Positions 8,168 through 47,488 of a DNA stretch of 64,000 nt are shown piece after piece. This stretch comes from a virus (Duplodnaviria; Caudoviricetes). The notes below the pieces were generated by a model. It worked only from the letters and a program-made list of their open reading frames with translations, ran no database searches and was not told the DNA's origin. The translations under genes and the position numbers were made by a program. How positions within the stretch are numbered: position 1 is the first letter of the stretch; each line of letters starts with the position of its first letter. Where the stretch lies: positions 96,001 through 160,000 of the IMG/VR virus record IMGVR_UViG_3300042997_002652. The stretch is one strand, 5' to 3'.

Positions 8168-8484
8168 ATTGTAAAACTCTCACCACAGCCGCATCGGGCT
8201 TTTTCATTCGGGTTTGTAAATTCAAATCCTTCGTTAAAATCTAATTTCTTATAATCTATTGCTAGACCAGAAACATAGACAAGTGATTTTTCAGTTATAA
8301 AAACAGAAAAGGTTTCAAACTTAAATTCATGATCAGTTGAATCAGCTACATCAACGAATTCTAAGACATAAGAAAATCCACTACATCCTGTGGATTTTAC
8401 ACCTATTCTTATACCGAGGCCTGAACCTCTTTTCTCTAGTTGTGATTTTACTCTGTCTGTCGCAGTATCGGATAATTTAATCAT
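8164..8484 (-). CDS. iscA: A-type Fe-S cluster carrier (IscA/HesB family)
   Basis: TGCSG and CGCGESF motifs, 106 aa. Confidence 0.92.
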   Translation of the reverse strand: MIKLSDTATDRVKSQLEKRGSGLGIRIGVKSTGCSGFSYVLEFVDVADSTDHEFKFETFSVFITEKSLVYVSGLAIDYKKLDFNEGFEFTNPNEKARCGCGESFTI

Positions 8485-8527
8485 AGTGTATTATACAAAA
8501 GAAATAAGAAAGACACAACAAAATAGG

Positions 8528-8857
8528 CTATTTCATTGCGCTTTTAGCCATTTGAGCTACAGTTTTTTCTTGTTCGGATTCTTGATTGGGGTTTTCTGAA
8601 TCATCAGATTGTCCTTTGAAAACAACTTTATCGCCTTGTATATTGGTAATAACTTGTTTTAAAGGAGGAACTTGTATCATGTTGTACAAGTCAGTTACAT
8701 CTAGGATTATATCATATTCTTGAAAATAATCTAATAACTGATCTGTAGTCATACCAAAATTTAATTTGTTATTTTCCAAATCAGTTTTTAGTTGGTCGGT
8801 TACCGCAACAAGTTTTGCGCTAAGACCTGGGTCTGTTTCAAGTTCAAAAAGACGCAT
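8528..8857 (-). CDS. Hypothetical protein, probable head-associated (MRLFELE N-terminus)
   Basis: Intact ORF coupled to its neighbour, with an N-terminus shared in style with other late proteins. Confidence 0.55.
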   Translation of the reverse strand: MRLFELETDPGLSAKLVAVTDQLKTDLENNKLNFGMTTDQLLDYFQEYDIILDVTDLYNMIQVPPLKQVITNIQGDKVVFKGQSDDSENPNQESEQEKTVAQMAKSAMK

Positions 8858-37867: not shown

Positions 37868-39142
37868 ATGAGCACACTAAAAATAATAACAAGTGCCATA
37901 GTATTCTGTGTTTTTAGTATGCCTGTATTTGGACAGGATACTACGACCATAAATACTACTAACGCAACTACAACCACAACCAATAACACCAATAACAATG
38001 TTATTACTAGTGATAATACCAATACCAATGTAAACACCAGTACTGCTACAAACAATAATAATAATGTAAGTACTAGTGACAGTACCAATCTGAATACTAA
38101 TATAAACACTAGTACCAGTACTGCAACAAACAATAATAATAATGTTAGCACGAGTGACAGTACCAACTTGAATACTAATATAAACACCAGCACCGCTACC
38201 AATAATAATAATAACGTTAATACAAGCACCAACGTAAACACAAATACATCTGTAAATACTAATAACAATACAAACAATAGTGTAAGTGCAAACACCAATA
38301 ACAATATAAACACCAGTACTAGCACTGCTACCAATAATAATATAAACACAAGCACATCGGTTAACACGAACAATAATAACAACGTTAGCGTCAGTGATAA
38401 TACAAATTTAAATACTAATATTAATACAAGCACATCCGTTAATACCAACAATAACGTTAATACTAGCACTGCTACCAATAATAATAATAACGTTAATACA
38501 AGCACCAATGTAAACACAAATAATAACAGTAGTGTGGTCACTAGTAACTCTAATAATGTTAACACTAGCAATAGCGTTAATGAAAATTTAAATGTCAATC
38601 AAAGTGTAAGCACAAGCGACAATAATATAAACCAAACAAGTGTAAACACAAATACCAACACAAATCAAAACTTAACTGTATCAGATAACACCAACAACAA
38701 CTATAATGAAAACGTAACAAGAAACGAAAGCACTCAGCGTATTGAACAAGAAATTAACTCACCGCCTCCTAGTGCGATAGCACCTAGTATCGGTAGCAGT
38801 TACTCACAAGACTTGTGTACAACAGGCATCAGTGGAGCAGTACAAACACAAATATTTGGTTTATCTACTGGTAAAAGCATTACAGATGAAAATTGTGAAC
38901 GAATAAAACTAAGCAAAACTCTTTACGATATGGGTATGCGTGTTGCTGCTGTATCACTAATGTGCCAAGACGAACGAGTATGGACTGCTATGAAAATGGC
39001 AGGAACTCCTTGCCCTTATGAAGGTAAGATTGGATCCGATGCTTCTATATCTTGGGAACTGAACAGAGAAGAAGTGCCTGGATACAATGAAAGACGAGAT
39101 CGTGATGTAGCCAGTACTCCCAATATGCCGAGAAGTAGATGA
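37868..39142 (+). CDS. Secreted protein with a long Asn/Thr/Ser repeat region and a Cys-containing C-terminal domain
   Basis: Signal peptide, about 270 aa of NTSTATNNNNNV-type repeats, and a C-domain with DLCTTG, NCERIKLSK, MCQD and TPCPY. Confidence 0.8.
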   Translation: MSTLKIITSAIVFCVFSMPVFGQDTTTINTTNATTTTTNNTNNNVITSDNTNTNVNTSTATNNNNNVSTSDSTNLNTNINTSTSTATNNNNNVSTSDSTNLNTNINTSTATNNNNNVNTSTNVNTNTSVNTNNNTNNSVSANTNNNINTSTSTATNNNINTSTSVNTNNNNNVSVSDNTNLNTNINTSTSVNTNNNVNTSTATNNNNNVNTSTNVNTNNNSSVVTSNSNNVNTSNSVNENLNVNQSVSTSDNNINQTSVNTNTNTNQNLTVSDNTNNNYNENVTRNESTQRIEQEINSPPPSAIAPSIGSSYSQDLCTTGISGAVQTQIFGLSTGKSITDENCERIKLSKTLYDMGMRVAAVSLMCQDERVWTAMKMAGTPCPYEGKIGSDASISWELNREEVPGYNERRDRDVASTPNMPRSR

Positions 39143-41088
39143 AGCAGTTTTTATTACTTGTGTTGTTAGTCGTTTCTTCTATGGCTCACAGTCAAGATTA
39201 CACACCAAACTTAATTGACTATACTGGTTGGGTAAACGCTGGATCAGTAGGAGAACAACTTACGTGCTGGTCTCCTGGTGGTCCTGGATACTGTGGACCA
39301 TTGCCTGCTGTAGGTGCGTTTAATAATCCCAGTTTGATTAATTTTTCGTATGGCTTAACTGACATTTATCAACCCGTTGATATAGCACAAGCATTGAGTG
39401 CTGCTGGTAGTGGCATTATTGTTAACGGGTTTAGCTTTAACTTTATTGCTAAGAATGGTAATGGTTGGGATAACGGGCAACTTGATTACTTAACAGCGTA
39501 TGCAAAGTTTTATAACAATAATAGTTTAGTAGAATCCTACAACTATGATTTAAATTATAGATTCAATTGGACAAACTTCAATTATTCAGAAACTTTTACA
39601 AACCCGTATCAAATAAATGATTTGGATGAGGTGAAAGTTGGATTTGTAGGTAGAGACACAAATGGTTGGGCAGGATTTTATGGGCCCGAAGTAAGGAACA
39701 TTAATTTTAGATTGAATTATGGGATAGATCCTTGTTATGAAGATCCACTGTCATCAACTTCTTGTGCTGGATTTCAAGAAGCATTATTAGAATTACAATG
39801 TAATGGTGATCCATTATCAAGTATAGATTGCCCTGGATACTTGGAAAATTTTATGTCAGAAATTGATATGAATTTAGATGAAGTTTTTGAAGATGAGATG
39901 TATGATGAATATAGTGAAGAAGAACTATACGAAGACTTAGAAGAGGAATTCTTTGAAGATGAATTCATAGCAGATGAAGAATTTTTAGATGATGAAGAAC
40001 TGTTAGATGAGGACTTAATAGCGGATGAAGAATTTTTAGATGAGGACTTATCAGACGGGGAGTCGGTATTGTCGTTGTTGAAATTAATTGGAATACTTAA
40101 CAACACAGACGATGAATCTATTGATTCTTTAAGTCAGTATGATAGTAATACAATTATGGAAAACCAGATTGTTGAAACTATTACCTCAACAAATATTTCA
40201 ATCATTAAAACAGATGATATTGCCGAACCGGTTAAACAAGAAAATATTATAAGAGTTGAAGTTACACAATTAACAGAACAAAGCGTTAGCTCTGATTCAT
40301 TGATTGCAGAAATTGCAGATCAAGATGAAAAGCAAGTAGAAGATATAGAAACCACAGTTGATGACACGCTGATTGTTGACGATAATATAGAAGAAGAACT
40401 AGAAACAATTATTGCTGTTTCACCTTCGAGTAACGTCAGTGAAACAAATATTGAAACACTTCTTTCCGATAACACGGTACAAGAAAATAATACAGAAACA
40501 GTAGTTGCTGCTACCGAACAAGTTAGTGAGGAAGAAGAAACAAGTGTAGGAAATATTGTAGCACAAGAAGAAACAAATAATAATGAAGAAACAACAAATG
40601 ACAGTTTTGATGATATAACATTGATGAGTGAAGTTAGTTTGGATGTTGTAACCACTGCTACTTCTACATTCAATAATAATTCTATGCAACAAGTATTAGC
40701 ATTGGGAGGAACAATAACAGAAATACTGAATACTCCAGTTCCTGATTTTAGTAGATTTGAAATTAAGCCGCCTACACAAGACGAACAAGTACAAACAGCC
40801 AAAGTAGAAAATACGATAGAAACTATGAGTACAGAAGAGATAGAAAGTCAAGCAGAGATAAGAATAGGATCTATGGATCCAGAGTCTCAAGCAATAGCAT
40901 TACAGTTAATAGGATATAAACAAGGATTTGATCAGTATGGCGGAATGCTTGTTGATCAGAGTAATTGGTATTTAGATAGAGGCATGTATACAAACAACCG
41001 TGTACCAGCAGTATCTAGTTCCAATCAAATATTTGGTGCGCAGGATCAAAGACACCAAGAACTAATGTCATTACAATACGGGAGATAA
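39139..41088 (+). CDS. Secreted acidic protein with beta-sandwich-like N-domain and paired CxxDPLSSxxCxG motifs
   Basis: Signal peptide, DPCYEDPLSSTSCAGF / CNGDPLSSIDCPGY, and very D/E-rich linker. Confidence 0.7.
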   Translation: MKQFLLLVLLVVSSMAHSQDYTPNLIDYTGWVNAGSVGEQLTCWSPGGPGYCGPLPAVGAFNNPSLINFSYGLTDIYQPVDIAQALSAAGSGIIVNGFSFNFIAKNGNGWDNGQLDYLTAYAKFYNNNSLVESYNYDLNYRFNWTNFNYSETFTNPYQINDLDEVKVGFVGRDTNGWAGFYGPEVRNINFRLNYGIDPCYEDPLSSTSCAGFQEALLELQCNGDPLSSIDCPGYLENFMSEIDMNLDEVFEDEMYDEYSEEELYEDLEEEFFEDEFIADEEFLDDEELLDEDLIADEEFLDEDLSDGESVLSLLKLIGILNNTDDESIDSLSQYDSNTIMENQIVETITSTNISIIKTDDIAEPVKQENIIRVEVTQLTEQSVSSDSLIAEIADQDEKQVEDIETTVDDTLIVDDNIEEELETIIAVSPSSNVSETNIETLLSDNTVQENNTETVVAATEQVSEEEETSVGNIVAQEETNNNEETTNDSFDDITLMSEVSLDVVTTATSTFNNNSMQQVLALGGTITEILNTPVPDFSRFEIKPPTQDEQVQTAKVENTIETMSTEEIESQAEIRIGSMDPESQAIALQLIGYKQGFDQYGGMLVDQSNWYLDRGMYTNNRVPAVSSSNQIFGAQDQRHQELMSLQYGR

Positions 41089-41093
41089 TAAAC

Positions 41094-41411
41094 ATGGTAA
41101 AAAAATTACAAGACAATTCAGAATATAACCAATATGATGCTGACGGCGACGGAATAGTTTCCGATGAAGAAATTGCTAAAGCAGAACGTTTAGCAGAATT
41201 AGAAAACAAAGACAGAAAAGAAGATCAGTTAAGACAAATGGCTTGGGTAGCTATGGGTTCTATGGTGTTTTTTACTATTGCACTATTCTTACCATTTTTA
41301 AGCGTAGAAAGACTTACTGCGTTAGATAACTTGTTAAGCATGTTTTATATCGCACAAGCAGGTGTAGTAGCAACATTCTTTGGTTCTAGTGCTTATATGT
41401 CAAGAAGCTAA
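41094..41411 (+). CDS. Small membrane protein with canonical EF-hand loop and two TM helices
   Basis: DADGDGIVSDEE 12-residue loop followed by two hydrophobic helices. Confidence 0.7.
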   Translation: MVKKLQDNSEYNQYDADGDGIVSDEEIAKAERLAELENKDRKEDQLRQMAWVAMGSMVFFTIALFLPFLSVERLTALDNLLSMFYIAQAGVVATFFGSSAYMSRS

Positions 41412-41431
41412 AATAAAATAGGGGTAAAGTT

Positions 41432-41893
41432 ATGTTGGAAATAGGTATAGCACTCAATATGGCTGTTTCTGCTTTCAATGGTATAAAGAAAGCAGTTGAA
41501 GCAGGAAGAGAGATAGAAGATGTTGCGGGTTATTTTGGCAAATTTTTTGATGCAAAAGAAACCATATCTGAAGCATCACAATATAATGAAAATGCCCCTT
41601 TATTCAAAAAAATATTCGCAGGCAAAAGTGTAGAAGCTCAAGCCTTAGAAATTACTGCAGCCAAACATAAAGCAGCAAAAATAGAAAAAGAGTTGCGCGA
41701 ATTTCTTATCTATTCTGGTCAAGCTCAGTTTTATGAAGATATGCTGAGAGAAAGAAGACATATCAGAGAAGCTAGAATAGAAAAAGCAAGAGCAAATGCT
41801 ATAAGTAAAAAGTTTTGGATTGATGCGTTTTTTATAGGATTTCTTTTAACGACTATTTTTATCCTATTAGGTATGATAATAAGAATAATTTAA
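41432..41893 (+). CDS. Helical protein with C-terminal TM anchor
   Basis: AVSAFNGIKKAVEAGREIED start, hydrophobic C-terminus. Confidence 0.6.
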   Translation: MLEIGIALNMAVSAFNGIKKAVEAGREIEDVAGYFGKFFDAKETISEASQYNENAPLFKKIFAGKSVEAQALEITAAKHKAAKIEKELREFLIYSGQAQFYEDMLRERRHIREARIEKARANAISKKFWIDAFFIGFLLTTIFILLGMIIRII

Positions 41894-41912
41894 ATTTTGA
41901 GGTAATAACATC

Positions 41913-42437
41913 ATGAGTGATGAAGAAAACAAAACAGCACAAGTAGAATTTGCCGGAATGAGTTTAAGCGGTAGTAAACTGCTATTGTTGATACCTATTT
42001 TAAGTGCATTAGGCGGAGCACTTTGGGGAGGATTTGAAGTGTATCAGCGTTTGTTGGATGCTGAAGAAGCTGTCACAAGTTATATTGCTCCTGATATGTC
42101 AGGCATAGAACAACAGTTAGCAGTACAGCAAACACAAATGAACGAGTTTAAAACAGCCATAGATCAACAGTTTGCTACTACTAATCAATTGTTAGCCGAA
42201 CAACGCACTCAAATAAATGATATCAGACAAAGTATGCGTGATCAAGAATCATTGGTTAGAACTATTGACGAAAATACCGCAACTACCCAGCGTGATTTAA
42301 GAAACGATGTGTATGAAATGGAAAAAGAACTTAATGATAGAGTTAAAGAGTTAGATACTACTTTAAGAACGGTCCGCGAAGATTTAGAAAAGAAAATGCA
42401 GGAAATTTTAGCGAATCCTTTAAATACGGTTGAGTAA
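41913..42437 (+). CDS. N-terminal TM plus long coiled-coil protein
   Basis: LLLLIPILSALGGALWGGF TM segment followed by heptads. Confidence 0.65.
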   Translation: MSDEENKTAQVEFAGMSLSGSKLLLLIPILSALGGALWGGFEVYQRLLDAEEAVTSYIAPDMSGIEQQLAVQQTQMNEFKTAIDQQFATTNQLLAEQRTQINDIRQSMRDQESLVRTIDENTATTQRDLRNDVYEMEKELNDRVKELDTTLRTVREDLEKKMQEILANPLNTVE

Positions 42438-42454
42438 ACTTGAACATTTGTTGC

Positions 42455-42490
42455 ACACCCTCTTTATTAAATACATATAAAGAGGAGTGT
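42455..42490 (+). promoter_or_regulatory. Hairpin sequestering the RBS, with a late-promoter TAAATA in its loop
   Basis: Arms 42455-42467 (ACACCCTCTTTAT) and 42477-42490 (ATAAAGAGGAGTGT), loop TAAATACAT, ATG at 42494. Confidence 0.75.
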
Positions 42491-42493
42491 AAA

Positions 42494-43732
42494 ATGTTTT
42501 TAAAAAACAAACCGTTATCTCGTAGAACATTATTAAAAGGTGCAGGTTTCAGCTTAACACTGCCCATGTTAGATGCTATGATACCTACTGTTACCGCAGC
42601 TCCTATTGCTGATCCTAAGTTAGCTTTCATTTACTTTCCTCACGGTGCTGTAATGAAATATTGGACTCCTCAACAAACAGGTAAAGACTTTGAGTTTTCA
42701 CCCATACTAAAACCATTAGAACCTCTTAGAGACTATGTTACTGTAGTAAGCGGATTGAGAAACAAAGGAGGTGAAAGTTCCAATCCTCATAGTATCATTG
42801 AAGAAACTTGGTTAACTTGTGTAGCACCAGACCAAAGAACAGGTGAACAAGGTTTAAGTGCTGATCAGATTGCAGCTAAGCACTTTACAAATACACCTCT
42901 GAGTTCGTTAGAATTATGCGGCGAACCCGGCGGATCACTTAGCTATCGTTCTAACAATCAAGCATTACCGCTTGAAGGCAATCCCAGAAAGGTATATTAT
43001 ACCATGTTCGGGGAAGGTGACAACTATCAAGATCGCATGAACATTCTAACACAGAAAAATAGCTTGTTAGACTATGTAATGGAGAGTACTAAATCACTAA
43101 ATAAGAAACTGGATAACAACGACAAACTTAAAGTGGAAGAGTATTTGAGCAGTGTACGCGATATTGAAAAGCGCATATCAGGGTTAGAAAGCAGTGCTAG
43201 TGGTCTTACTGATTTACCAGAAGCTCCTATTGGTCCGCCCGACGATTTTGAAGCACTATTAGATATTCAGTATGAAATGATGGCATTAGCATTACAAACA
43301 GGACAAACTCGTATCGTGAGTATGCGCACAGTTAAAGAAGCCAGTATGAGAGTGTTCAGCAACTTGGGCATTGAGGAAGCGTTTCATCCACTTAGCCATC
43401 ATCAAGAAAATGAAGCCAAGTACGAACAATTAGTAAGACTACAGCGTTGGCAAACTGAACGCGCTGCTAAATTTGCTCTTAGACTAAAAGATATGGGTTT
43501 ACTTGACGATACCGTGATCTTATTTGGTTCTAACATGAGCAATTCAGACAGACATAATAACGATCCACTACCGTCAGTGCTAATTGGTCGTGCAGGTGGC
43601 ATTAAAGGTAATCAGCACTTAGCTTATGCTCAAGATACTTCCCATGCTCGTTTGATACACACAATGTTAGAAAAGACTGGTGTACACTTAGATCAGTTTG
43701 CTGATAGTACAGGATCATTATTAGAAGTATAA
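42494..43732 (+). CDS. DUF1552 (HXXSHH) family protein with twin-arginine-type N-terminus; start revised to 42494
   Basis: SRRTLLKGAG, LPMLDAM, FIYFPHG, SADQIAA, HPLSHH and LDDTVILFGS motifs. GAGGAG RBS. Confidence 0.85.
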   Translation: MFLKNKPLSRRTLLKGAGFSLTLPMLDAMIPTVTAAPIADPKLAFIYFPHGAVMKYWTPQQTGKDFEFSPILKPLEPLRDYVTVVSGLRNKGGESSNPHSIIEETWLTCVAPDQRTGEQGLSADQIAAKHFTNTPLSSLELCGEPGGSLSYRSNNQALPLEGNPRKVYYTMFGEGDNYQDRMNILTQKNSLLDYVMESTKSLNKKLDNNDKLKVEEYLSSVRDIEKRISGLESSASGLTDLPEAPIGPPDDFEALLDIQYEMMALALQTGQTRIVSMRTVKEASMRVFSNLGIEEAFHPLSHHQENEAKYEQLVRLQRWQTERAAKFALRLKDMGLLDDTVILFGSNMSNSDRHNNDPLPSVLIGRAGGIKGNQHLAYAQDTSHARLIHTMLEKTGVHLDQFADSTGSLLEV

Positions 43733-43757
43733 TTTATGGTAAAAAATTAATCAAATC

Positions 43758-43822
43758 TTGACAGGCCTGTCACATAATTTTAACATAGTATTTAATAAAT
43801 ATGTGTGACAAAATTATAACAG
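43758..43822 (+). promoter_or_regulatory. Sigma70 promoter with overlapping palindrome, late motif and Pho-box-like repeats
   Basis: TTGACA(43758)-17-TAACAT. Palindrome TGACAGGCCTGTCA at 43759-43772. CTGTCAC-ATAA-TTTTAAC at 43767-43784 (+). CTGTTAT-AATT-TTGTCAC at 43805-43822 (-). TAAATA at 43796. Confidence 0.6.
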
Positions 43823-43837
43823 TCAAGGATAATATAA

Positions 43838-46063
43838 ATGAATAAACTCAATAAACTTTTCACGGCACTTTTTATAAGTGCCATTTCTTTATCAACCCAG
43901 GCACAACCCTCGCTAGAAGAAATAGTAGTTACAGCTACCAAAAGAGAAACAAACTTAATTGATACACCCATATCAATGTCAGTAGTAAGCTCAAAGAATT
44001 TACAAGAAAGACACGTACAAAGCTTAATGGACTTGGCTGATGGTTCTGTTCCTGGATTAAACATAGCTCCATTTGAATCTAGACAATCTGCTGTTACTAT
44101 TGGTATTAGGGGTATTGTTCCTCTTGATGCTAATCAACCAGCGCGTGAACAAGGAGTAGGTGTTTACATAGATGGAGTATACTTAGGTAGACAACATGGA
44201 TTGAACGCAGCATTGCTAGACTTAGAAAGAATTGAAGTACTAAAAGGACCTCAAGGTACACTCTTTGGTAGAAACACAGAAGGTGGTGCGTTAAGTATGG
44301 TAACAAAAAAACCCACTGGCGAATTTGACTTTAGAATGAATACGGGAGCAGGTAACTATAATAGTAATAATATAGACTTTCATATTAACTTACCTACATT
44401 CTTTAATGTAATGACCAAGATAGATGGGATCACTCAGTATCAAGATGCTACTACTAAAAATCCATTAGCCGGTGAAACTGGTTGGAACTTTTTTGAAAGA
44501 AAGGGATTTAAAATAGCTAACAGATTAGAAACTGATAACTTTACTTTTGATTATTCATATGATGTAAGTATGGATGCGAACAGTCCCTTTTATAGTCAAT
44601 TGCTTAATTACAATCCCATGAATTTGCCAAATGTAACTCCTCTTCCTCCTATGGTAGTTGTAAACGGTTCTAGTATCATGAAAAAAGGTGATATTGGTGT
44701 TCCGCAACAACCTAGCGTAGCTGATGTAGGTGGTCAAAGTTTTAATATTATTTGGGATGTAACAGACAACTTAGAGTTTAGATCAATCACAGCTAAGCGT
44801 TGGGTAGATTCTACACAGTGGGATAATGCTGGCGGTGCTCACAGAATTCCAGTAGCTAAAGCAAACAGTGTATTCAGTAGATATAGTGTTTCTGAACTTC
44901 ATCAAACACAATTTAGTCAAGAGTTTCAGTTAGTAGGAAGCACTGATACTATTGATTACGTAGCTGGTTTATACTACTTTACTGAAGACGCATATGAAGA
45001 AGCAGCCACTCCTTCAACTAATACTTGGAACTTTACTCTAACTGGTTATACTATAAATGATCTTACCCCAACTCAACCAGGTAAAAGATTTATAGATAGA
45101 GGTAGTAGAGCCACTGCTGTTAGTAGCGCAGTGTTTTCACAGGCTACTTATACCCCTATTAATTTTGAAAGACTACATATAACATTAGGCGGAAGATATA
45201 CTAAAGACGATAAATCAGGCGAGTTGTATCTTTTAAGAAATAACCCATCACCGTACTCTTTCATAGAAATTTCTAAAAGATTTAATCCTTTAGCAATCGT
45301 TGCGTTTGATGTTACTGATGGTATCAATGCTTATGTGAAATACGCTACTGGTTATCGTTCTGGTGGTGCTAGTTCACGTTCAGCAACTTATCGCTCATTT
45401 GGACCTGAAGATAATATTTCATATGAGTTAGGTGTAAAAGCGCAATTAGATCGTGCTAGAATTAACTTTGCTGCTTACACGATGGAAAGAACTGGTAGTC
45501 AAGTTGACTTTAGTCAAGTAGTATTTGATCCTGTTTCTAAGTCTTCTAGACACACATTAGAAACTATGAATGCTCCGGGGATTACTGAAATTCAAGGTAT
45601 CGAACTTGATGGAACATTCTTAGTAACTGAAAATTTAGAAGTAACAGCAGCGTATACGTATACAACTACATCAGTACCTGCTACAATTAATCCGTTTAAA
45701 AACTTACCTCAACCAGTGTTTATTGTATATACACCTGAAAATGTTTGGAACTTGGGAGCAAATCATACATTAGCACTTGACAAGTTTACAGTAGAAACAC
45801 ATTTGAGTGCGAATAAGTCTGATCCTTCATATTCATTTTCTGAATTTGATTTACCAAATGACGGATCATTTATCGTAAATGCAAGCGTATCTATAAATAA
45901 CTTTATTAATGCTGAAAGTCTAAGCTTACAATTGTGGGTAAGAAATATGTTAGATGGTCATTTTGTTTTTAGAAGTGATCCATCAAATGACAATGTGTTG
46001 GGTACTTATGGTAACTTTAACGCGCCAAGAACTTTCGGTATCACATTAGGGTACGAAATATAA
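43838..46063 (+). CDS. TonB-dependent outer-membrane receptor
   Basis: Signal peptide, TonB box LEEIVVTA, plug GVYIDGVY...ERIEVLKGPQGTLFGRNTEGGA, C-terminal PRTFGITLGYEI. Confidence 0.95.
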   Translation: MNKLNKLFTALFISAISLSTQAQPSLEEIVVTATKRETNLIDTPISMSVVSSKNLQERHVQSLMDLADGSVPGLNIAPFESRQSAVTIGIRGIVPLDANQPAREQGVGVYIDGVYLGRQHGLNAALLDLERIEVLKGPQGTLFGRNTEGGALSMVTKKPTGEFDFRMNTGAGNYNSNNIDFHINLPTFFNVMTKIDGITQYQDATTKNPLAGETGWNFFERKGFKIANRLETDNFTFDYSYDVSMDANSPFYSQLLNYNPMNLPNVTPLPPMVVVNGSSIMKKGDIGVPQQPSVADVGGQSFNIIWDVTDNLEFRSITAKRWVDSTQWDNAGGAHRIPVAKANSVFSRYSVSELHQTQFSQEFQLVGSTDTIDYVAGLYYFTEDAYEEAATPSTNTWNFTLTGYTINDLTPTQPGKRFIDRGSRATAVSSAVFSQATYTPINFERLHITLGGRYTKDDKSGELYLLRNNPSPYSFIEISKRFNPLAIVAFDVTDGINAYVKYATGYRSGGASSRSATYRSFGPEDNISYELGVKAQLDRARINFAAYTMERTGSQVDFSQVVFDPVSKSSRHTLETMNAPGITEIQGIELDGTFLVTENLEVTAAYTYTTTSVPATINPFKNLPQPVFIVYTPENVWNLGANHTLALDKFTVETHLSANKSDPSYSFSEFDLPNDGSFIVNASVSINNFINAESLSLQLWVRNMLDGHFVFRSDPSNDNVLGTYGNFNAPRTFGITLGYEI

Positions 46064-46773
46064 TGTTAAAAGATAAACTAACCATAGTAATACCTTGCAA
46101 AAATGAAGAAAAATATATAGCTCACCTGCTAAATTCATTACATGAGCAAATAGGTATTCATGATGTTAGAATAATTATAGCTGACATATCAACTGATAAT
46201 ACTAGACAAGTTATAGAAGAAAACAAAAAGGACTTAGATGTAGTAGTTATAGAGGGAGGTCCCGTGTCCAAAGCCAAAAACAATGGAGCCGATCTTGTAA
46301 CTACTCCCTATATCTTATTCATAGATAGTGATGTTAGGTTTTTTAATAATTTGGTTATTAGCGACACGATAGCACTATTAGAAAAAGAAAACTTAGATTT
46401 GATTGGGTTAAATATAAAGTGCTATGATAATGATCACGTTGCTAAGGTTAGTTTTAGCATTTTTAATATTGTTAATAAAATAATGTCTAACTTTATACCT
46501 TTTGCAGTTGGTGCGTATATGTTAACTCGTACTGAAAAGTTCTATGAGTTGGGAGGCTTTCCTGAAAAGTATCCTACATCAGAAGATTTTCATTTATCTA
46601 AAAAATATGATGTTAAAAAGTTTAAGATAGCCAATCATTATTTTGGTCAAGATAGTAGAAGATTTAAAAAGATGGGATACTTTGGTATGACTTGGTATTT
46701 GATAAAAAACTTTATTAACAGAAATAATGAATCTTATTGGAAGAACTTAGATGGAAACAAATACTGGTTATAA
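46063..46773 (+). CDS. Glycosyltransferase family 2
   Basis: IVIPCKNEE, IADISTDNT, NNGA, FIDSDV (DxD) and SEDF motifs. Confidence 0.9.
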   Translation: MLKDKLTIVIPCKNEEKYIAHLLNSLHEQIGIHDVRIIIADISTDNTRQVIEENKKDLDVVVIEGGPVSKAKNNGADLVTTPYILFIDSDVRFFNNLVISDTIALLEKENLDLIGLNIKCYDNDHVAKVSFSIFNIVNKIMSNFIPFAVGAYMLTRTEKFYELGGFPEKYPTSEDFHLSKKYDVKKFKIANHYFGQDSRRFKKMGYFGMTWYLIKNFINRNNESYWKNLDGNKYWL

Positions 46774-47488
46774 ATCAGTTTTTATATCAGACTTACACCT
46801 GGGTTCTAAACACTGCAACTCTGAAAAGCTTTTGTCTTTTTTATCAAATCTACAAACAGAAAAATTGTACTTAGTAGGAGATATAATAGACGGTTGGAGA
46901 TTGCAGAAAAAGTGGTATTGGCCTAACAAACATAATATAATACTAAAAAAACTTATCAAGTTATCTAAGACAACCGAAATTATATACATTACCGGTAATC
47001 ATGACGAGTTTCTTAGATCAATACCTGATGTTAAAATAGGTAATGTACCAGTATATAACAGAATAGACCACATAGGTACTGATGGTAAACGATACTTAGT
47101 TACTCATGGTGATATATTTGATCATTTAATGAGAACGCGCAGCGGCAGATTTGTCATGCATTTGGGTGATATAGCATACGATGGTTTAATATATCTTAAC
47201 CGATTGGTAAATGGTGTGAGAAAAATATTTAACAGACCGCCGTGGAGTTTAGCTAAATTTTTAAAAAAGAAAGCAAAAGCGGCTGCTACATACATAGGTG
47301 ACTTTGAACAAGAAATGTCAACGTATTGTAAAAAGAAAGGATACGATGGTGTAATCTGCGGTCACATTCATCATGCGACTATCAAGAATTTTGACGGAGT
47401 AGTTTACATGAATGATGGAGACTGGTGTGAAAGTTGCACTGCTTTAGTTGAAACTAAAGCAGGCACATTTACAATCATCCAATACTGA
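46751..47488 (+). CDS. plcP: PlcP-like phospholipase C (LpxH-like metallophosphoesterase subfamily)
   Basis: FISDLHLGS, LYLVGDIIDGWRL..KWYWP, GNHDE, VTHGDIFD, DGVICGHIHH and YMNDGDWCESCTALVE match my recollection of the PlcP subfamily along the whole length. Confidence 0.75.
   Translation: METNTGYKSVFISDLHLGSKHCNSEKLLSFLSNLQTEKLYLVGDIIDGWRLQKKWYWPNKHNIILKKLIKLSKTTEIIYITGNHDEFLRSIPDVKIGNVPVYNRIDHIGTDGKRYLVTHGDIFDHLMRTRSGRFVMHLGDIAYDGLIYLNRLVNGVRKIFNRPPWSLAKFLKKKAKAAATYIGDFEQEMSTYCKKKGYDGVICGHIHHATIKNFDGVVYMNDGDWCESCTALVETKAGTFTIIQY

Follow-up and report, generated by a model that had tools for sequence, protein, structure and literature searches.

The bacterial gene pair of DUF1552 (PF07586, HXXSHH) and PSCyt3, which to our knowledge has been without a known function for twenty years, occurs in abundance among planctomycetes, verrucomicrobia, acidobacteria and aquatic gammaproteobacteria. 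The domains of these PSCyt3/PSD and DUF1552 pairs were reportedly set out by Studholme in 2004. The locus described here raises the question of why a phage should carry one half of such a pair, the DUF1552 half, on its own. The window analysed is a stretch of 64,000 nucleotides, bases 96001-160000 of the 266,967-bp IMG/VR record IMGVR_UViG_3300042997_002652 (G000), a T4-like phage. A first-pass annotation of the window had singled out one gene as an orphan DUF1552, full-length and with a twin-arginine N-terminus and an HPLSHH motif, and these sequence features were located as follows:

42480 to 42487, plus strand: Shine-Dalgarno sequence AAGAGGAG, 6 nt 5' of the ATG
42494 to 43732, plus strand: DUF1552 (PF07586, HXXSHH) coding sequence, 412 aa, a host-derived auxiliary gene (Pfam E 4.9e-76)
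42494 to 42598, plus strand: predicted Tat signal peptide, residues 1 to ~35 (SRRTLLK), from sequence reading and the invariance of R10/R11
43385 to 43402, plus strand: HPLSHH motif, residues 298-303 (H298, S301, H302, H303), which belongs to the invariant histidine cluster

The match to PF07586 reached 256.7 bits against a gathering cut-off of 30 and covered profile positions 2-306 of 307, so that the protein is indeed a complete family member with both motifs in place. Its start codon is the ATG at 42494, with homologues sharing the N-terminus MF(L/I)xxK..SRR, while use of an alternative TTG start at 42440, in a longer frame, is unlikely. The N-terminal LSRRTLLKGAG represents a twin-arginine motif, and the predicted Tat signal would probably be cleaved near TVTA/A; sub-threshold matches to PF10518 (TAT_signal) were obtained on two other phage copies (L165 and L166). 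When 30 bacterial paralogs were aligned with the phage copies, R10, R11, H99, D124, Q125, H298, H302, H303 and H354 proved invariant. The RR motif is kept by nearly all viral DUF1552 copies, and HxxSHH by most of them.

Inspection of the surroundings revealed phage core genes on both sides of DUF1552, encoding the tail sheath, a DnaB-like replicative helicase, rIIA, UvsX, the large terminase and virion proteins, and the GC content is flat along the 267-kb record. The GC3 of DUF1552 (0.29) resembles that of its phage neighbours, compared with 0.36-0.77 in bacterial orthologues. The gene resides in a 9.6-kb island of nine plus-strand genes (37868-47488) bounded by minus-strand core genes, in which DUF1552 is preceded by genes for a pair of exported low-complexity proteins and for three small proteins of EF-hand-like or coiled-coil type, and is followed by those for a TonB-dependent receptor, a GT2 glycosyltransferase and a calcineurin-like phosphoesterase:

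37868 to 42437, plus strand: five co-oriented island genes 5' of DUF1552 (424, 649, 105, 153 and 174 aa), exported/low-complexity, EF-hand-like and coiled-coil; syntenic in the phage record L002
43838 to 46063, plus strand: TonB-dependent receptor directly 3' of DUF1552, with its own promoter region (Plug domain E 7.9e-18)
46063 to 47488, plus strand: GT2 glycosyltransferase and calcineurin-like phosphoesterase at the island end (Pfam context)

The same cassette order was found in L002, a phage record of 158.9 kb (94% complete), where the DUF1552 orthologue is 75% identical and an orthologue of the TonB receptor follows the DUF1552 genes; the GT2/phosphoesterase pair was not found in the 10-kb downstream flank of L002. 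Weak matches to EF-hand and dockerin-type calcium loops were observed in the small island proteins of both phages (41094-41411 in the window; L002:7421-7702 and 8256-8570), with one small island protein of L002 exceeding the Pfam cut-off for Dockerin_1.

These features bear directly on the possibility that the gene is an assembly chimera, part of a host flank or a decaying passenger with no role in the phage, for which the IMG/VR label of the record, 'provirus', and its CheckV completeness of 76% could be cited. The phage core genes on both sides, the flat GC, the phage-like GC3, the intact reading frame, a dN/dS of ~0.05 (window copy against L002, and L002 against L084/L085, with dS saturated) and the syntenic cassette in an independent 159-kb phage record all argue against such an origin, to which we therefore attach almost no weight. 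The phage-like GC3, together with the synteny and the 75%-identical orthologue in L002, indicates that DUF1552 is neither a chimera nor a recent passenger, and the earlier concern that the contig might be chimeric is thereby removed at this gene. The many host-like genes of the record may explain its 'provirus' label; no host flank was seen near the window.

The pairing that is lacking in the phage is close to obligatory in bacteria. Bacterial pairs of a PSCyt3/PSD protein (DUF1587-1595-1592-1588-1585, haem c) with DUF1552 have been described (He et al. 2017, PMC5615132), and published accounts leave the pair unexplained while noting its Tat signal and cytochrome motif and suggesting a periplasmic redox or carbohydrate-linked role (PMC5615132; PMC3542564). 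Our search of the literature for functional studies of DUF1552, the partner DUFs, DUF1501 or PF07586/HXXSHH found none. Of the fetched loci, 113 had at least 2.6 kb of upstream flank, and in 103 of these the PSCyt3/PSD haem protein was located directly upstream of DUF1552; the remaining 10 comprised five frame-overlap or gap artefacts, three phage rows (G000, L002/L083) and two loci from Bryobacterales. DUF1552 is paired in ~108 of 110 bacterial loci, the two Bryobacterales loci being the sole exceptions, which bears out the expectation that the bacterial gene usually adjoins a DUF1592/1588/1585-type partner. In the bacterial operon of the nearest relatives, a haem protein of 815-850 aa with the domains PSCyt1, DUF1587, DUF1595, DUF1592, DUF1588 and DUF1585 is followed by DUF1552, an ankyrin-repeat protein and an MBL-fold protein; the last two (the former of 500 aa) continue the operon 3' in L004, L005 and L008, and the phage took neither.

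The five gammaproteobacterial metagenome-assembled genomes (MAGs) that we regard as donor-type (G005-G009, 2.5-4.3 Mb) each contain 10-21 DUF1552 genes and 10-22 PSD4/partner genes, roughly 1:1, and in one of them (G006) all 10 DUF1552 genes have a PSD4 gene 0.8-1.3 kb upstream on the same strand. At ~3.7 kb per pair, these MAGs, which lie behind loci L004, L005 and L007-L009, devote roughly 2-3% of the genome to such pairs. One of the loci, L005 (JAYPEI010000004.1), is titled 'Enterobacteriaceae bacterium', a label that looks wrong; its DUF1552 groups with Pseudohongiellaceae, with ten DUF1552/partner pairs and a GC of 0.44.

By comparison, the phage DUF1552 has no haem protein directly upstream on the same strand, and the claim that the partner is absent, made for the window, now extends to the whole 267-kb record. 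PF07631, PF07627, PF07624 and PF07637 gave no match at E<=1 across all 266,967 bp, and an HMM of 60 partner sequences, run with filters off against the six-frame translation of the record, returned a best E of 1.5. No c-type cytochrome was detected in the record either, its sole CxxCH motifs belonging to a primase-like zinc finger and a spurious ORF. Relatives of the partner were likewise missing among the five upstream island genes (37868-42437), where the 649-aa protein was examined as a divergent partner and rejected (hhalign probability 0.1% against the partner profile). The upstream ORFs of 153 and 174 aa were ruled out as remnants of a second DUF1552.

The orphan state recurs well beyond this record. 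DUF1552 was detected on more than 20 IMG/VR contigs representing ~16 sequence types, with 21 loci in the widest scan in addition to L168; the scans were motif-seeded with three DUF1552 alignments, and these counts are therefore lower bounds. Upstream sequence of at least 2.6 kb was available for 19 viral loci (~16 sequence types); the partner was absent from all of them, and none had a neighbouring CxxCH ORF. PF07631 was also absent from four other viral records (G001-G004), one of them merely an 8-kb fragment, and two profiles, one of which was built on family-wide conserved motifs, recovered no partner relatives in IMG/VR. A phage-borne DUF1552/partner pair, which would have spoken against the orphan reading, was thus encountered at none of the loci examined. 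The gene first noted as an orphan is indeed partnerless, but it is not a one-off.

One of these contigs is a complete jumbo phage of 358,444 bp with terminal repeats and a GC of 0.56 (IMGVR_UViG_3300012943_000028, G003; locus L165), in which an independently acquired orphan DUF1552 is located between ribonucleotide reductase/Thg1-like tRNA-His guanylyltransferase genes and a UvrD helicase gene. At other viral loci the neighbours include a clamp loader with DNA polymerase B, a T4-type terminase, a DnaB helicase, the gp15 tail-sheath stabiliser with MazG, UvsW, and an Mre11/Rad50-type phosphoesterase and ATPase. Three phage records carry tandem DUF1552 pairs; in L002 (8592-11215) the two genes overlap by 4 bp and encode a 469-aa protein of a second class, 30% identical to its neighbour, the 405-aa orthologue. 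Metagenomic proteins of 60-80% identity, one of which is encoded on a 289-kb contig, group with this second class in a clade of their own.

On the T4-like contig L168 (7448-11626), the genes after DUF1552 encode an acidic, VWA-like protein of 753 aa and an AAA ATPase of CbbQ/NirQ type, which together resemble a CobT/CobS pair; a peptide deformylase and a 2OG-Fe dioxygenase are encoded nearby. The 753-aa protein was considered as a hidden partner and rejected (hhalign probability <1%); it looks CobT/VWA-type.

A tblastn search of 50,697 GenBank phage records gave no match, PHROGs holds no family for the protein, and our literature search found no paper on PF07586/HXXSHH in phages, in agreement with the initial statement that no phage role has been described.

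The phylogenetic position of the gene points to a gammaproteobacterial source. The nearest homologues, proteins of 405-413 aa, group in one clade at 66-94% identity, followed by bacterial proteins of 422-427 aa at no more than 68%. In the tree, this phage-type clade (19 rows, 100% support) lies beside Pseudohongiellaceae-type gammaproteobacterial sequences (~68% identity), with a viral context seen for four of its contigs (G000, L002/L083, L084 and L085). Relative to their bacterial sisters, the phage proteins show three short deletions, at the signal-peptide end and in two loops, while every invariant residue is kept. DUF1552, with its location in a genuine phage genome, its nested position among cellular sequences and the purifying selection acting on it in phages, qualifies as a host-derived auxiliary gene.

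Its capture was not a single event. The two class-A viral clades represent separate acquisitions, the AU test rejecting a single clade (p 2.8e-5), and at least one more is required by the second class, with its 30% identity. A FastTree analysis with 29 paralogs from two donor-type genomes required 6-7 changes between virus and bacterium, and judging from these trees phages have acquired DUF1552 at least three times and probably 6-7 times, numbers that, given the motif-seeded scans, are again lower bounds. The two class-A clades have only the shortening near the signal peptide and at residue 115 in common, and convergent loop loss, considered as further evidence, was uninformative.

The TonB receptor of the island has a full-length, 54%-identical orthologue in one donor-type MAG (G007:C51:9130-11322) and orthologues of 42-43% identity in two other donor-type genomes, which is consistent with the Pseudohongiellaceae-type group being the host lineage.

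Structural comparison provided a possible link to function. The AlphaFold2 model of the phage protein (pLDDT 77, pTM 0.77) contains the core fold of the alkaline phosphatase superfamily (Foldseek E 1.8e-6, probability 1.00), and VIA-align superposed 230-265 residues on NPP/ENPP, formylglycine sulfatase, LtaS and EptC structures with Z 16-17 and an rmsd of 3.3-4.3 A. A sequence-profile search of the PDB returned nothing at E<=10, and hhalign against four CxPxR sulfatases of donor genomes gave a weak alignment (probability 23%) limited to the C-terminal 'GSNM' segment, which falls on the 'SDNG' metal-ligand segment. While the core fold is common to NPP/ENPP phosphodiesterases, formylglycine sulfatases, LtaS and EptC, DUF1552 differs from these enzymes in having no recognisable CxPxR or Thr/Ser nucleophile signature, and histidines appear to stand at the expected positions of the Asp ligands. 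In particular, no Ser, Thr or Cys nucleophile is conserved family-wide at the expected helix N-terminus, which reads S-N-P-H, and the invariant polar residues of the family are histidines. The structure prediction proposed for the detection of a phosphatase-like site has thus supplied the fold, with the classic nucleophile signature not recognisable. The histidine cluster probably binds metal, and the conservation pattern suggests a metal site made up differently from those of classic phosphatases and sulfatases. A catalytic role is suggested by the fold and the conservation; our literature search found no experiment on any DUF1552 or partner. Alkaline-phosphatase-superfamily enzymes lack a c-type cytochrome partner, unlike bacterial DUF1552. 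The nearest other family by language-model features was DUF1501 (PF07394), which is associated with PSCyt2/PSD1 (score 0.82, a lead only) and follows the same pairing logic of a Tat-exported protein with a haem protein (PMC3542564); it is, however, a separate Pfam family, and the phage DUF1552 has no PF07394 match even at E<=10.

Considering these results together, we favour, at a little under an even chance, the reading that the phage supplies the exported half of a periplasmic host module, which would work with the host's own haem partner. According to this proposal, the gene would have been captured from a Pseudohongiellaceae-type gammaproteobacterium and long kept in a T4-like phage lineage, and its product, with its alkaline-phosphatase-superfamily fold and its probably metal-binding histidine cluster, would reach the periplasm by Tat export as the likely catalytic half of the module that the PSCyt3/PSD haem protein and DUF1552 constitute. 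The infecting phage would make DUF1552 alone and export it to the host periplasm, where it could boost or replace the host DUF1552 and rely on the haem partner already present in the host genome, by the same logic as cyanophages carrying only psbA.

The cyanophage auxiliary genes psbA and psbD each supply a single subunit of a complex of the host, and psbA works within host photosystem II. Phage DUF1552 resembles them in its host derivation, phage-adjusted composition, purifying selection, identity as one component of a host system and repeated capture; it differs in that its host system is periplasmic and of obscure function, and in that its dependence on a host component is presumed.

The proposed use of a host partner is grounded in the bacterial pairing, which is almost never broken, and in the closeness of the phage copy to host-type sequence. 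In support of it, donor-type genomes hold 10-21 DUF1552 and 10-22 PSD4 genes, and such a host would therefore supply partners. The phage protein is of the same length class as the bacterial one and has its Tat motif, HxxSHH and ~68% identity to the gammaproteobacterial orthogroup; it differs in its three small deletions and in the absence of genes for the haem partner, the ankyrin-repeat protein and the MBL-fold protein. The phage-like GC3, the dN/dS of ~0.05, the retention of all invariant residues and the Tat motif, and the capture of only the DUF1552 half at 19 of 19 viral loci likewise support this reading. The fit of the phage protein to a host partner nevertheless remains presumed, because the nearest sampled bacterial copy is only ~68% identical, and the host of this phage may lack the PSCyt3/PSD module. 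Its designation as the catalytic half is further weakened by the absence of a recognisable classic nucleophile and Asp ligand signature.

Repeated capture of a lone gene from several paralog classes, sometimes with two classes in tandem, would fit a partner-free enzyme equally well. We therefore consider, as a tentative but serious alternative, that DUF1552 acts as an autonomous periplasmic enzyme without need of a haem partner, turning over a small substrate as a metal-dependent esterase or transferase; in this phage lineage it would process what the TonB receptor imports within a nutrient (possibly phosphorus) scavenging island. The partner was never captured along with the gene in ~16 viral sequence types and at least three, probably 6-7, acquisitions; three phage records carry DUF1552 in tandem, the L002 pair being 30% identical; the order of DUF1552 and TonB receptor is conserved in two phages with 75% identity between their DUF1552 proteins; and the fold is that of a hydrolase/transferase superfamily. 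Bacterial orphans, on the other hand, are almost absent (0 of 10 in G006; 2 of ~110 loci), and the link to the receptor is limited to one phage lineage, with DNA polymerase, terminase, ribonucleotide reductase or MazG adjoining the gene elsewhere. The receptor also has its own intergenic promoter region, and the orthologous bacterial operon has no TonB receptor in its vicinity. As for a receptor/DUF1552 operon link in bacteria, the receptor matched only one bacterial locus (L021), weakly, and the idea was dropped. The suggested tie to the downstream uptake genes is accordingly limited to the lineage of G000 and L002 and does not extend to phages in general. A stronger form of autonomy, in which DUF1552 is a self-sufficient periplasmic enzyme throughout, with the large haem partner as a dispensable adaptor for specificity or electrons, is in our view less likely than not. 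On this view the repeated capture of the DUF1552 half by phages would itself reveal that self-sufficiency, and the compact phage copies would offer a minimal and tractable entry to a pair that takes up as much as ~3% of the genome in some aquatic bacteria.

The selection acting on the gene also bears on the suggestion that the phage hijacks the host system, with DUF1552 binding host partners so as to inhibit or divert a periplasmic pathway, or so as to change the envelope and thereby counter superinfection. The location of the gene in an island of exported or envelope proteins with no assigned function, and the lack of a partner of its own, would be compatible with such interference. All invariant residues, including the histidine cluster, are however kept under strong purifying selection, and a mere binder would need none of them, which renders this explanation improbable.

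The findings describe a recurrent, previously undescribed phage auxiliary gene, in which one half of a near-obligate bacterial pair has been taken repeatedly. Phages that keep one half under strong selection tell which half matters alone or is limiting, and their copies constitute small natural constructs for biochemistry. DUF1552 adds an unlisted family to the auxiliary genes of aquatic T4-like and jumbo phages, and points to periplasmic substrate processing as a phage target.

A further observation concerns the start of the gene, where a predicted RNA structure covers the ribosome-binding site:

42442 to 42499, plus strand: RNA hairpin in which the DUF1552 Shine-Dalgarno sequence and start codon are base-paired (MFE -19.7 kcal/mol, z -5.1)

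None of 200 shuffled sequences folded as well, and the hairpin could gate translation of DUF1552. Its loop contains TTAAATAC, which resembles the T4 late-promoter box.
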